A DNA stretch of 60,000 nt from NCBI GenBank assembly GCA_038087875.1, contig CM075987.1, positions 22,136,001-22,196,000 on the forward strand, in the 5' to 3' direction. The stretch's first letter is position 1. Each line of letters begins with the position of its first letter. Positions 13,576 to 51,869 of the stretch are shown here, in pieces. This DNA is from Malacoraja senta. Taxonomy: Eukaryota. The notes beneath the pieces were generated by a model. The model was not told where the DNA came from, did no database searches, and saw only the letters and a program-made list of their open reading frames with translations. The position numbers and the translations under genes were made by a program.

Positions 13576-15197
13576 CAAGAGAGTTTATTGTCATGTGTCC
13601 CAGATTGGACAATTAAATTCTTGCTTTGCTTCAGCACAACAGAATATAGTAGGCATGAATACAGAACTGATCAGTGTGTCCATATACCATTATATAAATA
13701 TATACACACATGAATAAATAAACAGATAAAGTGCAAATAAACAGATAATATGCTATTAATGTTCAGAGATTTGTTTGAGTTGAGTTTAATAGCCTGACGG
13801 CTGTGGGGAAGTGGCTATTCCTGTACCTGGACATTGCAGTCTTCAGGCTCCTGTACCTTCTACCTGAAGGTAGCAGGGAGATGAGTGTGTGGCCAGGATG
13901 GTGTGGGTCCTTGATGATACTGCCAGCCTTTTTGAGGCAGCGACTGCGATAGATACCCTTGATGGTAGGGAGGTCAGAGCCGATGATGGACTGGGCAGTG
14001 TTTACTACTTTTTGTAGTCTTTTCCGCTCCTGGACGCTCAAGTTGCCGAACCAAGCCATGATGCAACCGGTCAGCATGCTCTCTACTGTGCACCTGTAGA
14101 AGTTAGAGAGAGTCCTCCTTGACATACCGACTCTCCGTAATCTTCTCAGGAAGTAGAGGCGCTGATGTTCTTTTTCTTTATAATGGCATCAGTGTTCTCG
14201 GACCAGTAGAGATCTTCAGAGATGTGCACGCCCAGGAATTTGAAGCTCTTGACCCTTTCCACCATCGACCCATTGATATAAACGGGACTGTGGGTCCCCA
14301 TCCTACCCTTTCCAAAGTCCACAATCAGTTCCTTGGTTTTGATGGTATTCAGGGTCAGGTTATTGTGCTGGCACCATTTGGTCAGTTGGTCGATTTCTCT
14401 TCTATACTCTGACTCATCCCCCATCAGTGATATGTCCCTCAACAGTGGTGTCGTCAGCGAACTTGATGATGGCGTTCGCACTATGACAGGCTACGCAGTC
14501 ATGAGTATAGAGTGAGTACAGCAGGGGGCTGAGCACGCAGCCTTGAGGTGCTCCCGTGCTGATTGTTATCGAGGCTGACACATTTCCACCAATACGAACA
14601 GTCTGTGGTCTGTGAATGAGGAAGTCGAGGATCCAATTGCAGAGGGATGCGCAGAGACCCAGTTCTGCGAGTTTGGTAACCAGCTTGGAGGGGATGATTG
14701 TATTAAATGCCGAGCTGTAATCAATGAATAACAGCCTGACATATGAGTTTTTGTTGCCCAAGTGGTCCAGAGCTGAGTGGAGAGCCAGCGAGATCGCATC
14801 CACCATTGATCTGTTGTGGCGGTAGGCGAACTGCAGTGGGTCCAGGTTTTTGTCGAGGTCGGAGTTGATTTGCGCCATGATCAACCTCTCAAAGCACTTC
14901 ATCACCACTGACGTTAGTGCCACTGGTCGATAGTCATTGAGGCACATCACCTTGCTCTTCTTGGGCACCGGTATAATTGATGCCCTTTTAAAGCAGATGG
15001 GAACCTCAGACCTCAGAAGTGAGAGGTTGAAAATGTCCATAAAAACTCCAGCCAGTTGGGCCGCACAGGTTTTTAGAACACGACCGGGTATACCATCAGG
15101 TCCAGGCACTTTTCGAGGGTTCACCCCTCTGAAGGATTTTCTGACGTCGGCATCTGTGACTGTGACTGAAATACCATCACAGCAAATGGGGGCTCGA

Positions 15198-16022
15198 TTT
15201 GATTTGATTTGATTTGATTTGATTCAATTTATTGTCATTGCACTTTTCAGTGCAACGAAATGGTTTAGCCTGCAGTCATAACATAGAATAAATAACAAAA
15301 ACACACACTCAACACAGTTTAACATCCACCACAGTGAGTCCACCAGGCACCTCCTCACTGTGATGGAAGGCAAAAAAGTCCCAAAGTCCATGTCTCTTCC
15401 CTCCTTGCTCTCCCTCTGTGCTGAGGCGATCCAGGCCTCCGATGTTGTGACCCCACCGGGTGACGGTAAGTAAGTCCCACGGCTGAATCCGAACGTGCCG
15501 GTTCAAACTCCGCGGCCCAGGGCGGTCGAAGCTGCCGAAGCTGCCACCCTCCAGTCCAGCGGACGCAGCTGTTGTTGCGGGAGCTCCAGAAAAACAGGTC
15601 ACCAACCTGTGACCTGCGAGCTCCCGACAATGTCGTCCACTGGCCCTCGCCGTGCCTCTGAGGCTCCGAAGTCGGGTCGGAAGTCGGGTCGCAACGCCAC
15701 CACAGCCCCGAAGTCGGCCAGCCCCGCGCTGGCAAGTCCTGGCTGGCTCTGTCTCCCGAGCCCCAAGGTCGGTCCCAGTTGGGGGCCGCCAGCTCCGCGA
15801 TAGGCCTCAGCGCAGACGGAGACGGAGACGGGCGATACGGCAAGAAAGGTCGCATCCCCCCCGAAGGAAGAGCCAAAAAACATGCTTCTCCAACCCCCCC
15901 ACACATACACAACTAAAATAAACCAAAACAAACTGCAACAACGGGACAAAAGAAAACAAAAAAAGAAAAGACAAACGGACTGCAGGCGAGCCGCAGCTGC
16001 AAGGCCGCGCCGCCACTAGAAA
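15198..16022 (-). mobile_element. Non-coding CpG-rich retroposon with Rex1-like 3' tail, inserted in the Rex1 LINE
   Basis: Minus strand ends gacaataaattg(aatca)n. Flanked by a 42-bp direct duplication (15153-15194 / 16026-16067). Shares aacatccaccacag...cctcactgtgatggaag with 37375-38128. Confidence 0.8.
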
Positions 16023-16602: not shown

Positions 16603-17191
16603 ATTGCGGTATGGCAGTGAAGAAAGCGAATGGTATGTTAGCATTCATAGCAAAAGGATTTGAGTATAGGGCCGGGAGGTTCTACTGCAGTTGTACAGGG
16701 TCTTGGTGAGACCACACCTGGGATGTCAGGACTTTCATATGAAGAAAGACCGGATAGACTCGGCTTGTACTCGCTAAAATTTAGAAGATTGAGGGGGGAT
16801 CTTATAGAAACTTACAAAATTCTTAAGGGGTTGGACAGGCTAGATGCAGGAAGATTGTTCCCGGTGTTGGGAAAGTCCAGGACAAGGGGTCACAGTTTAA
16901 GGATAAAGGGGAAATCCTTTAGGACCGAGATGAGAAAAACAATTTTCACACAGAGAGTGGTGAATCTCTGGAACTCTGCCACAGAAGGTAGTTGAGGCCA
17001 GTTCATTGGCTATATTTAAGAGGGAGTTAGATGTGGCCCTTGTGGCTAAAGGGATCAGGGGGTATGGAGAGAAGGCAGGTACAGGATACTGAGTTGGATG
17101 ATCAGCCATGATCATATTGAATGGCGGTGCAGGCTCGAAGGGAGGCTTGAATGGCCTACTCCTGCCCCTATTTTCTATGTTTCTATGTTTC
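16603..17191 (+). mobile_element. 5'-truncated CR1/HER1-type LINE inserted in the Rex1 endonuclease region
   Basis: AVKKANGML...GLSYEER..RLGLYSL.FRRLRGDLIETYKI...TRGHSL...RVVNLWNS and (TTTCTATG)n tail. TSD TATGGTC at 16596-16602 and 17192-17198. Confidence 0.92.
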
Positions 17192-26088: not shown

Positions 26089-27395
26089 CCATTTCAAGCA
26101 GGGTGCAAGGCCACCAAATTCAAATGCAGTTTCCTACCATTTCAAGCAGGGTGCAAGGCCACCAAATTCAAGTGCAGTTTCTTACCACTTCAAGCAGGGT
26201 GCAATGCCACCAAATTCAAGTGCAGTTTCACGCCACCAAGCAGGGTGCAGGGCCACCAAACTCAAGTGCAGTTTCCTACCACTTCAAGCAGGGTGCAAGG
26301 CCACCAAATTCAAGTGCAGTTTCTTGCCATTTCAAGCTGGGTGCAAGGCCACCAAATTCAAGTGCAGTTTCATGCCACTTCAAGCAGGGTGCAAGGCCAC
26401 CAAATTCAAGTGCAGTTTCATGCCTCTTCAAGCAGGGTGCAAGGCCACCAAATTCAAGTGCAGTTTCATGCCACCAAGCAGGGTGCAAGGCCACCAAATT
26501 CAAGTGCTGTTTCATACCACTTCAAGCAGGGTGCAAGACAACCAAATTCAAGTGCAGTTTCATACCATTTCATGCAGGGTGCAAGGCCACCAAATTCAAA
26601 TGCAGTTTCATACCATTTCATGCAGGGTGCAAGGCCACCAAATTCAAATGCAGTTTTATACCACTTCAAGCAGGGTGCAATGCCACCAAATTCAAGTGCA
26701 GTTTCATACCACTTCAAGCAGGGTGCAAGGCCACCAAACTCAAGTGCAGTTTCCTACCACTTCAAGCAGGGTGCAGGGCCACCAAACTCAAGTGCAGTTT
26801 CCTACCACTTCAAGCAGGGTGCAAGGCCACCAAATTCAAGTGCAGTTTCTTGCCATTTCAAGCTGGGTGCAAGGCCACCAAATTCAAGTGCAGTTTCATG
26901 CCACTTCAAGCAGGGTGCAAGGCCACCAAATGCAAGTGCAGTTTCATGCCACTTCAAGCAGGGTGCAAGGCCACCAAATTCAAGTGCAGTTTCATGCCAC
27001 CAAGCAGGGTGCAAGGCCACCAAATTCAAGTGCAGTTTCATGCCATCTCAAGCAGGGTGCAAGGCCACCAAATTCAAATGCAGTTTCATACCATTTCAAG
27101 CAGGGTGCAAAGCCACCAAATTCAAATGCAGTTTCATACCATTTCATGCAGGGTGCAAGGCAACCAAATTCAAGTGCAGTTTCATACCACTTCAAGCAGG
27201 GTGCAAGGCCACCAAATTTAAGTGCAATTTCATACCACTTCAAGCAGGGTGCAAGGCCACCAAATTCAAATGCAGTTTCATACCATTTCAAGCAGGGTGC
27301 AAGGCCACCAAAATTAAATGCAGTTTCATACCATTTCATGCAGGGTGCAAGGCCACCACATTCAAATGCAGTTTCATACCATTTCAAGCAGGGTG
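26089..27395. repeat. 48-bp minisatellite, ~27 units, inside the Helitron
   Basis: Unit TTCAAGCAGGGTGCAAGGCCACCAAATTCAAGTGCAGTTTCATACCAC with occasional 46-bp variants; gives the 16-aa periodicity in the ORF track. Confidence 0.97.
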
Positions 27396-27488: not shown

Positions 27489-27683
27489 CCTCTCCCTCTC
27501 CCTCTCCCTCTCCCTCTCCCTCTCCCTCTCCCTCTCCCTCTCCCTCTCCCTCTCCCTCTCCCTCTCCCTCTCCCTCTCCCTCTCCCTCTCCCTCTCCCTC
27601 TCCCTCTCCCTCTCCCTCTCCCTCTCCCTCTCCCTCTCCCTCTCCCTCTCCCTCTCCCTCTCCCTCTCCCTCTCCCTCTCCCC
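27489..27683. repeat. (CTCTCC)n microsatellite, ~32 copies
   Basis: Perfect hexamer tract. Confidence 0.98.
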
Positions 27684-50073: not shown

Positions 50074-51355
50074 ATCACATTCCCTAAAACAAGAAATTTT
50101 AACGAACTGTGAAAAATGTTAAACACTTGTGGATTATACCAATAGACCCAGTAGTTAGATAAAAATTAACCTATAAGTCATTGGTAAGCCTTTTATATAC
50201 CATTAGTTGAGTTGGGTTTCTCCTGTTGTTGAAGACTCAGTTGTGCAAAGTTTAAACAGGGTGAAAGCTGCAGCTTTAATCTCCACTTTGGCAGCATTGG
50301 CATCAAATCAGCACTTTGTACTAATTGCCATCATGATGCGCCTCGTTTGTGTGCTTCTAGCAGGCATTTTTGTCGTAAATGCTAATGTCTTCACTAATAT
50401 ACGGTCAGCTGTACTTACCACAAATGTCTGCTTGTACATTAGATGCCTAGTTGGAACCTATTTGGCATATGTAGTATCTAAATAATGGGCACTAAGGAGC
50501 TGTAACTTGTAACAAATGTTTTTGAATATTTAATTGACATCTAGAAGGGTTCCTGCCTCCAAAGAGAGTGGAGTGGCCACTCCTAAATTGCATTTAAATT
50601 TAAATAAGAATGATACTTAGTTGTAGAAATGATCCATGTCATCATCTGCTTAATGTAAGAACTAGGAGCAAAAAAACATTGGGTGCAATATTCCTTCCTC
50701 ATAACTACGTTAAAGGTTGACGTTAGCATATGTATGCATTAGTCTTTTAGATCAGTGGAAATATTTTATTGCCTATCAATCAGCAGTCTTCATTCAGCTC
50801 AGGGAACAGTTTCTGCATTGCTTGCACTTGCCTCTACTGGAAATTTTCATGCATGGTGTAGCTTTCTAGAGCCTAGACCTCCTGTATCTGAGCTTCCTCA
50901 GTGCTCTATATCATACCCAGACCAGTGCTAAACAGGACTTGTTTGCCATGCCCTCGATAGTGATGCATTGCTGAACTAATGGGAATTTTGGAACAGATCT
51001 TGTCATTTGATCACAATACTAGACACTGCTGTATACATCTGTAATGCAGGAAATGGCAGCATCACAGAATAATTAAAAGGGCAGTAGTTTAAATGGAAAA
51101 TCTTAGAGGTTCATATCTACTAATGTACTCCTTGATTTTTTTTATTGCCAATTTTATCACTGATATGTAAATTTCAAAAAAGGGCCTCCATCTCTTTCTA
51201 TGTAGTTGGTGAGGTTATTTGTGGAAAATACCCTTGTGGCAGTCAGCACAGCTCTATTCTGATACTGAGGGCTAGTTGGAGAGGAATGATGCAACATCAA
51301 ACTGATCTGAAGGTGCTCAACCCTTGAATTGTACTGCAGGCTGACAGCATCCTGT

Positions 51356-51491
51356 GGGGTGGGAGATTGCAACCTTCACGTGGTCCGTCGATGAATGCAA
51401 TCAACCTGGCATGCACAATCAAATAAGATCAAATAGAACAAGTTGTCCTACAACTTCAGGCTGTACACGCCATACGCAAGAAGAAGAAAAA
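51356..51491 (+). mobile_element. 136-bp non-autonomous retroposon (Ingi/Vingi-like tail) with HDV-like ribozyme remnant at the 5' end
   Basis: Perfect 13-bp TSD GACAGCATCCTGT at 51343-51355 and 51492-51504. 3' end gccatacgc(AAG)n-A. 5' pairings P2 GATTGCA/TGCAATC and P3 ACC/GGT around loop TTCACGT. Confidence 0.8.
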
Positions 51492-51869
51492 GACAGCATC
51501 CTGTCAGAGACTCGGACCTCCTGCTTTATAAATTTAAGATCATCCTGAATTCTGCTACACACACCATAAACCTGCACCAACTCTCCATTTTCTGTTCATT
51601 TCCATGCGAGCTTTCAATTCAGCACTACTGTACTTCATTAACAAAATGTTGTTATACAGTACCTTCCTTTAGCCATACAACGCTTCATAATCTCTACGTT
51701 CCCCAATTCTGGCCTCCAGCAAACCACTGATTTTTTTTTGTCTAACCATTCTTGCCTTCAACCCTTTCATCACCAAGTTCTTGAATTCCCTCCATAAACA
51801 TCTCTATTTTTTTCCCAAATCCATGAAAGACTTTTTAAAACCTACTTTTTTTCAAATCCTAATTTCTCC

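Follow-up and report, generated by a model that had tools for sequence, protein, structure and literature searches.

Self-cleaving ribozymes resembling that of hepatitis delta virus (HDV) were reportedly described by Ruminski et al. in 2011 at the 5′ ends of RTE and other long interspersed nuclear elements (LINEs), these being autonomous elements with full-size ribozymes. Such HDV-like heads are established for the R2, RTE and L1Tc elements (PMC6765202, PMC7761336), and a few short derivatives are also on record. In Drosophila, the R2 SIDEs (short internally deleted elements) and R2/R1 hybrid SIDEs carry a LINE-type 3′ end and are thought to be cut from a co-transcript and then inserted by target-primed reverse transcription (Eickbush & Eickbush 2012, PMC3414825). 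L1Tc and its short partners NARTc and SIDER have in common the Pr77/L1TcRz HDV-like ribozyme, which occupies their first ~77 nt and releases the RNA from co-transcripts (PMC3185411, PMC3383444, PMC4035085). Here we analyze a short element located in a 60,000-nt stretch of Malacoraja senta contig CM075987.1 (positions 22,136,001 to 22,196,000, hereafter called the window), and the repeat family to which it belongs, family A. This element is probably a non-autonomous retroposon of the type without long terminal repeats (non-LTR), whose HDV-like head lacks the P4 stem and which is co-transcribed with host sequence, cleaved just before its first nucleotide (G1) and copied by a LINE; the window copy itself is a dead one.

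Comparison with the described systems shows both common features and differences. Perere-3 LINEs of Schistosoma, as here, bear a small ribozyme at their 5′ end, and target-site duplications (TSDs) adjoining its cleavage site were interpreted as the mark left by in vivo cleavage; that ribozyme belongs to a twister-variant class and the element is autonomous, unlike family A (PMC8501958). L1Tc/NARTc, as far as described in the reports cited above, differ from family A by their ingi/L1Tc clade, their protist host and a head doubling as promoter, and the ends of NARTc and SIDER are near-identical to those of their LINE, whereas the ends of family A are not. The SIDEs, like family A, are short non-autonomous non-LTR elements with an HDV-like head, which has diverged from the LINE head mainly through compensatory changes, as in the present case (PMC3414825). 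According to the same account, they are found in ribosomal DNA target sites only, measure several hundred bp, keep P4, exist in few copies and have 3′ ends still recognizable as R2 or R1, with up to 81-83% identity. In contrast, family A measures 143 nt, lacks P4 and is scattered over the genome in thousands of copies, and (AAG)n is the sole 3′ feature which it shares with a LINE.

The mammalian CPEB3 ribozyme (RF00622) is single-copy, intronic and P4-bearing. It is identical to family A in loop L3 (UUCACGU), in the CCCUGU after P1′ and in the J4/2 strand CGAA, but family A has no P4, differs in P1, P2 and P3 sequences and stays under the cut-off of the CPEB3 model. A preliminary description of the window element had likened its TTCACGT loop to that of CPEB3 and, accordingly, the Rfam consensus contains both UUCACGU and CGAA. 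A minimal HDV-like ribozyme, drz-Mtgn, is said to have been presented by Riccitelli in 2014. As they are described, drz-Mtgn and theta ribozymes resemble family A in having a P4-less double-pseudoknot core of ~50-60 nt. Metagenomic examples of P4-less HDV-like ribozymes self-cleave in vitro at 0.0022 to 1.69 per minute (Kienbeck 2024, PMC10879173). The available text of that report states that the form was first seen in metagenomes, ~99% of it from Caudoviricetes phages and often beside tRNAs, that its origin had earlier been described as undetermined, and that a search of some eukaryotic genomes gave few matches outside phages. Unlike theta and drz-Mtgn, the head of family A starts a retroposon in a 1.94-Gb eukaryotic genome, its cleavage site abuts TSDs, no tRNA accompanies it and its core is of CPEB3 type. 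We found no description of a P4-less HDV-like ribozyme heading a SINE-like animal element (SINE, short interspersed nuclear element) in the literature reachable without most subscription journals and without Repbase/Dfam.

The 136 nt of the window copy were searched against the whole assembly (1.94 Gb, 6,182 contigs). Forty matches were scored among 1,481 first-look candidates, and the other 39 were 91-94% identical to the query, each with flanks of its own. An exact 18-mer covering family positions 6-23 occurred 4,848 times genome-wide (control, 0) and an exact 13-mer covering positions 46-58 occurred 6,778 times (control, 6), in agreement with the earlier proposal of a family rather than a single-copy sequence. 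Family A has at least about 6,800 copies. Alignment of 30 copies gave a typical length of 143 nt with the 3′ region GGCTGTGCACGCCATACGC, and every aligned copy terminates in (AAG)n. TSDs of 6-13 bp, with one mismatch at most, were found at 26 of the 30 top-scoring loci, a set including three duplicate loci and in which L024 and L027 form a segmental pair. At 24 of these 26 loci, the TSD was flush with the element, its last base being the base before G1. The element had originally been viewed as a TSD-flanked, (AAG)n-tailed, SINE-like retroposon, and these loci bear out that view.

The first 54 nt of intact copies are predicted to constitute a minimal HDV-like ribozyme of the CPEB3 type. Typical copies follow the HDV-like double-pseudoknot order P1-P2-P3-L3-P3′-P1′-P1.1-(P4)-J4/2-P2′, as exemplified by the intact head included in Table 1. 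P1 comprises 7 bp and is closed by a G1·U pair (G1 with T36), while P1.1 consists of one pair, C22-G37. P4 is absent, as had been suggested from the window copy, and a linker of 5-6 nt separates the P1.1 G from the catalytic C. No P4-bearing version of the family A head was found in the genome: the five matches to the corresponding pattern all had small deletions. The full 7-bp P1, P1.1 and CGAA, incomplete in the window copy, were all restored in typical copies, as seen by alignment, by a structural descriptor and in a sample of 100 matches.

In its strict form, this descriptor called for seven pairs in P1 including the G·U, three in P3, seven in P2, an L3 of 7 nt able to form the P1.1 pair, and C-N-AA. 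Neither the real window nor 20 shuffled versions of it, read on both strands (2.4 Mb in total), contained a match. In 595,900 bases of fetched loci, the descriptor gave 32 matches, corresponding to 29 family A heads and three LINE heads. Fifteen of the 30 aligned loci passed it (the window copy is one of the 30), in a sample biased towards the window copy, which served as query. A minimum-free-energy fold of the head found P1 and P3 and was no better than shuffles (z = +1.6), as is to be expected of a pseudoknot, which the folding program is unable to draw; it was not used as evidence.

Head variation was counted by eye in the first 100 of the 6,778 13-mer matches, taken in genome order. The catalytic position was C in 92 rows, T in 6 and G in 1, and was unreadable through a deletion in 1. 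The following J4/2 base varied freely (G 67, T 15, A 13 and C 4). P1′ was CCGCCCT in 42 rows, CCACCCT in 28, CTGCCCT in 6 and CTACCCT in 2, the remainder being other single changes (12) and deletions or rearrangements (10). All four main P1′ states, 78 of the 100 rows, retain seven standard P1 pairs (U5·G or U5-A; G6-C or G6·U). A T at the tolerant J4/2 base co-occurred with CCACCCT in 12 of its 15 rows, suggesting a subfamily that descends from a source copy in which the catalytic C and the pairing were both retained.

The window copy belongs to both minorities, with a deletion in P1′ and a T at the catalytic position. On re-reading, all motif coordinates proved to be those first described. 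Its 13-bp TSD is perfect (100% identical), as had been claimed, and is the sole repeat detected by repeat search within 51250-51600. The 3′ end reads gccatacgc, then AAGAAGAAG, then AAAAA, with 51491 as last base. A deletion of 7 nt between 51387 and 51388 took away four bases of P1′ (CCCT), two linker T's and the P1.1 G, and the P1-closing pair of G1 is lost; these 7 nt are present in 27 of the 29 other aligned copies. The copy failed the descriptor in its strict and relaxed versions alike. With the P1.1 G and the 3′ half of P1′ missing, and with CGAA turned into TGAA by a C to T change at a CpG, the window copy is, to judge from its sequence, dead and cannot cleave. The same diagnosis had been made before, from the shortened P1′ and the TGAA. 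No relative of its body (51403-51477) was detected, and BLAST against the LINE described below gives no match there.

Further copies depart from the standard layout. Derivatives at G000:C2:5692709-5692743 and G000:C4714:1928346 are shorter still, with hardly anything between ribozyme and tail. At L031:5896-7021 (minus strand), L024 and L027, an insert of ~1 kb with terminal inverted repeats of ~70 bp interrupts a family A copy at TTA; within this insert lies a further repeat of ~535 bp, for which the genome has 7,216 first-look candidates. A 1.1-kb 'parent' of family A, suggested by the second match in L024/L027, was rejected: it is a family A copy split by this nested insertion, and its six open reading frames (ORFs) have no Pfam match.

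Family A is one of several ribozyme-headed families in this genome. The Rfam CPEB3 model RF00622 gave 60 genomic matches, 39 of them above its 35-bit cut-off and the best at 64.2 bits. LINE heads scored 61-64 bits. Family B (L083-L092, for example L092:404-456, minus strand) likewise lacks P4, has TSDs and an (AAG)n tail, and measures ~180 nt in the copies that were read; its RF00622 matches of 61-65 nt reached 36.3 bits, and a 21-mer occurring 1,310 times sets its copy number at 1,310 at least. Its P1 has six pairs with a C-run of variable length. Family C (L093:391-458; L097:400-467 and L098:401-468, both minus strand) scored 48-51 bits despite decay and has an 8-bp P4; its P1, P2 and P4 are spelled very close to the Rfam CPEB3 consensus. 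This family may be relevant to how the CPEB3 ribozyme of mammals originated. One CPEB3-type core is common to families A-E and the LINE heads, while P4 ranges from none in A and B through 4 bp in D and 8 bp in the LINE and C to a longer stem region in E. The HDV/CPEB3 scan proposed at the outset was therefore positive for the LINE heads and family B, whereas no family A copy reached a gathering score.

Of these comparisons, the one between families A and B is the most telling. P4 is absent from both, and the family B linker TTTCCAC-CAA equals that of family A save at two places, giving a common form TTTC-N-AC-N-AA. Five of the seven P2 pairs and two of the three P3 pairs differ between the two families and all of them still pair. 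The LINE head has P1 GGGGATC with GATCCCT, P2 GGTAGAA with TTCTACC, P3 GCG with CGC and an 8-bp P4, and is identical to family A at L3 TTCACGT, at the G-T after P1′ and at CGAA. The two heads have the same architecture and an identical core, with 67% identity over 30 nt. We then scored covariation in 24 heads of six families (6 A, 4 LINE, 9 B, 3 C, 1 D and 1 E) with a structure specified beforehand from them. Standard pairs were formed in 94.6% of cells, versus 75.0 ± 1.2% in shuffles (0 of 500 reached 94.6%) and at most 46.4% when partners were slid by 1-3 columns. The covariation score was 0.423 versus 0.149 in the control (0 of 500 reached 0.423), all of which is to be read with the set amounting to about six lineages and the structure being derived from the same sequences. 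Eighteen of the 26 pairs were altered on both sides across families. For P2, 95.2% of cells were paired and six of seven pairs were altered on both sides. Fourteen heads have letters at the P1-closing pair, and in 12 of them it is G-U.

The best candidate for the mobilizer of family A, judging from its head and tail, is the 3.1-kb LINE to which the LINE heads above belong. At L080:198-3337, a 3.14-kb element consists of the ribozyme head, a short leader, a single 940-codon frame and an (AAG)n tail, its 3′ end being ...CTTCAAAGACACGAA(AAG)n. Exo_endo_phos and RVT_1 are the only domains in the frame, and no RNase H match was obtained. A 12-bp TSD is flush with the head at L080 and an 11-bp TSD is flush with GGGG at L082; L082 and L081 are ~97% identical to the L080 element over ~3.14 kb. 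Further RF00622 examples of LINE heads are found at L075-L078. The exact P4 24-mer of the LINE head occurred nine times, full-length heads being rare. Among 8,000 scored candidates, the LINE protein had 244 relatives at E ≤ 1e-20, mostly of ~1,000 aa on ~3.2-kb contigs; identity was 50-63% in a lancelet, sea urchins, a starfish, fishes, Anolis, psyllids, moths and crabs. From its layout, the element appears RTE-like, and it fits the ribozyme-headed RTE class as described, with a short 5′ untranslated region (UTR), a single ORF for endonuclease and reverse transcriptase (RT) and a microsatellite tail. Of the 78 (AAG)≥3 runs in ~360 kb of fetched loci plus the window, 63 followed a family A end, 5 a B end, 3 an end of the LINE and 7 other sequences.

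A simple scheme of family A mobility would involve four steps. The promoterless element would be transcribed inside host RNA polymerase II (Pol II) transcripts. Its 54-nt head would then fold and cut 5′ of G1, thereby setting the exact 5′ end of the RNA; we infer cleavage at this position from the fold, the covariation and the TSDs flush with G1. At a nicked target, a LINE reverse transcriptase would use the (AAG)n tail as its starting point and copy up to the cleaved 5′ end. Insertion would finally leave TSDs of 6-13 bp flush with G1, such as those present in the assembly. Co-transcription, the first step, was observed in RNA reads of related organisms placed on an intact copy with its flanks, from run X21 (poly(A), organism label F) and run X24 (oligo-dT, label C). 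Read cover was confined to the element, at ~100-260 per orientation in X21 and ~520-1,040 in X24, and 95% (X21) and 92% (X24) of placed reads continued into unlike sequence. Transcription of the family thus takes place within many longer RNAs. Contigs of two more runs (labels A and B) also carry family A, which is therefore common to several related organisms. Head variants found in at least 10% of reads were G8A in J1/2, C31T and G32A in P1′ (pairing kept), G42A in the linker and changes of the tolerant J4/2 base. No variant of this frequency was found in the P1 5′ strand, P2, P3, L3 or P2′, and C44T at the catalytic CpG was present in about 4-12% of reads.

Several observations weigh against this account. 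In X21 and X24, no site at which many molecules start or stop was reported, nor a pile-up of read 5′ ends at G1. Among the loose ends listed, 207 reads (X21) and 679 reads (X24) extended past G1 into upstream sequence unrelated to the element. Poly(A) RNAs containing the element are thus for the most part uncleaved, a result which counts against efficient cleavage in vivo; the power of this comparison is low since it combines both orientations, many decayed copies, poly(A)-selected libraries and species that may differ. The loss of P4 could make cleavage slow, and P1.1 is a single pair. RF02682 (HDV-type) aligned an intact family A copy end to end from G1 at 14.4 bits only (E 1.5, cut-off 44), and family A remained under every Rfam gathering score (RF00094, RF00622, RF02682 and others); by the Rfam standard, it thus lies outside every curated family. 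C to T change at the catalytic CpG (6 of 100 rows) was similar to that at two other CpGs (8 and 6-8 of 100), as neutral decay after insertion would predict, and gives no further word on function. Finally, BLAST comparison detected no similarity between family A and the LINE 3′ end past (AAG)n: families A and B have in common with the LINE just the head and (AAG)n, so that the partnership is circumstantial.

These results could also mean that the head merely descends from, or structurally imitates, a LINE ribozyme and no longer cuts, its double-pseudoknot shape having been kept after the loss of P4 for another purpose, such as binding of the LINE protein or protection of the 5′ end. In that case, something else, for example an internal or upstream start site, would set the exact 5′ terminus. 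The reads running through the G1 junction without a pile-up of starts, the missing P4, the single P1.1 pair and the low Rfam scores are all in keeping with a relic, and the R2 protein is reported to bind a 5′ pseudoknot of its RNA (PMC6765202). Nevertheless, we consider a relic rather unlikely. Typical copies have retained the catalytic C, the G1·U pair, L3 and the AA of J4/2, while the tolerant J4/2 position varies freely. Moreover, absence of P4 does not prevent HDV-like ribozymes from cleaving in vitro (PMC10879173), and TSDs flush with G1 are evidence of the kind that was read as a cleavage footprint for Perere-3 (PMC8501958). A cleaving P4-less head thus remains the reading we favor.

The preliminary description had assigned mobilization to a LINE of the Ingi/Vingi type having both termini in common with the small element, as NARTc with L1Tc. 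The one argument for such a partner is the analogy with L1Tc/NARTc and their common 77-nt ribozyme head (PMC3185411, PMC3383444). We searched for a LINE sharing the family A termini by four 'not-this-base' IUPAC patterns, built on the family 3′ 17-mers or on the ribozyme 3′ end. These gave 77, 13, 58 and 5 matches, all of them deleted or indel-bearing copies of the small element, and no LINE sharing the termini was obtained; the Ingi/Vingi idea is therefore unsupported. The ribozyme-headed LINE actually found is RTE-like in layout, with endonuclease and RT domains alone in its 940 codons, and its relatives are proteins of ~1,000 aa from ~3.2-kb contigs. An Ingi/Vingi-type partner hence appears most improbable.

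Finally, an ordinary RNA polymerase III (Pol III) SINE whose head resembles an HDV-like ribozyme by accident would be equally short, high-copy and TSD-flanked, but is hardly credible: the element contains no tRNA according to ARAGORN, no tRNA, 5S or 7SL match according to Rfam and no B box, its sole A-box-like match (2 mismatches) straddles the flank, the descriptor found nothing in shuffles, and the head covaries with LINE heads. Family A thus has TSDs, but neither the tRNA/7SL/5S head nor the internal Pol III promoter of a classical SINE was detected. Together with the reads placing the element inside longer transcripts, this sustains the Pol III independence first suggested.

Table 1. Parts of the family A copy in the window (window positions) and of an intact family A head
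Feature	Position	Strand	Remark
5′ TSD copy, GACAGCATCCTGT	51343..51355	+	13/13 identical to 51492-51504; last base directly precedes G1
Whole element, 136-nt copy of ~143-nt family A retroposon	51356..51491	+	Copy search and alignment of 30 copies
Remnant of predicted P4-less HDV/CPEB3-like ribozyme head	51356..51402	+	47 nt here versus 54 nt in intact copies
P1 5′ strand GGGGTGG	51356..51362	+	G51356 predicted to follow the cleavage site directly
J1/2 GA	51363..51364	+	Sequence
P2 5′ strand GATTGCA	51365..51371	+	Partner of 51396-51402
P3 ACC	51372..51374	+	
L3 TTCACGT	51375..51381	+	Same as Rfam CPEB3 consensus and LINE head
P3′ GGT	51382..51384	+	
CCGTC	51385..51389	+	P1′ remnant is CCG, 51385..51387
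GA	51390..51391	+	Between CCGTC and TGAA
J4/2 TGAA (CGAA in typical copies)	51392..51395	+	Catalytic C lost, C to T at CpG
P2 3′ strand TGCAATC	51396..51402	+	Sequence and covariation
Body	51403..51477	+	7-bp hairpin AAGTTGT (51440-46) / ACAACTT (51450-56) in fold of 3′ part
Tail (AAG)3 + A5	51478..51491	+	Sequence; alignment of copies
3′ TSD copy	51492..51504	+	100% identical to 51343-55
Intact family A head, P1 to P3	L002:1501-1554 (whole head)		P1 GGGGTGG, J1/2 GA, P2 GATTGCA, P3 ACC
Intact family A head, L3 to P1.1	L002:1501-1554 (whole head)		L3 TTCACGT, P3′ GGT, P1′ CCGCCCT, G (P1.1 partner of L3 C)
Intact family A head, linker to P2′	L002:1501-1554 (whole head)		Linker TTTCGA, J4/2 CGAA, P2′ TGCAATC

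Other features of the window were recorded as well. The Rfam scan of the window gave no match at gathering scores and, near the element, just weak matches to small nucleolar RNAs (snoRNAs) of the C/D-box type at 51275-51345 (plus strand), immediately upstream of the insertion, where snoJ33 scored 19.3 bits (E 0.18) and sR12 15.3 bits (E 0.61). The D-box-like CTGA of this match overlaps the TSD. Far under the cut-offs, these matches are probably due to chance. A tandem array of 27 copies of a 48-nt unit with 92% matches occupies 26089-27395, and (CCTCTC)32 lies at 27489-27682. On the minus strand, there are a Tc1/Sleeping-Beauty-like transposase remnant (2044-2643) and a LINE RT fragment (14414-15223). 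Three (CTATGTTT)n runs at 17168, 43758 and 48283 resemble octamer-repeat LINE or SINE tails on the minus strand. Outside the window, L077:1670-1796 holds a near-perfect palindromic hairpin of ~127 nt, similar to a miniature inverted-repeat transposable element, with sub-cut-off matches to several plant and animal microRNA precursor models (up to 70.8 bits versus 90).

Ribozyme-headed LINEs and a few short derivatives of them were already known; what is new here is the size and spread of the family, the lack of a LINE-derived 3′ UTR and the minimal P4-less core. Family A is a dispersed, high-copy element of 143 nt, with little beyond ribozyme and tail. The P4 series displayed on one CPEB3-type core provides material for asking what role P4 plays and from which source the mammalian CPEB3 ribozyme arose. 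RTE-like LINE heads score up to 64 bits with the CPEB3 model and one family has nearly the same P1, P2 and P4 spelling; thus, the CPEB3 ribozyme could be a domesticated retroposon head. More broadly, and tentatively, the heads of two animal SINE-like families may represent a second natural home for P4-less ribozymes, hitherto ascribed nearly entirely to gut phages; in this home, a double pseudoknot of 54 nt would be enough in vivo to set the 5′ end of a retroposon RNA. If these heads do cleave, the thousands of copies lying within host transcripts could also cut host RNAs.

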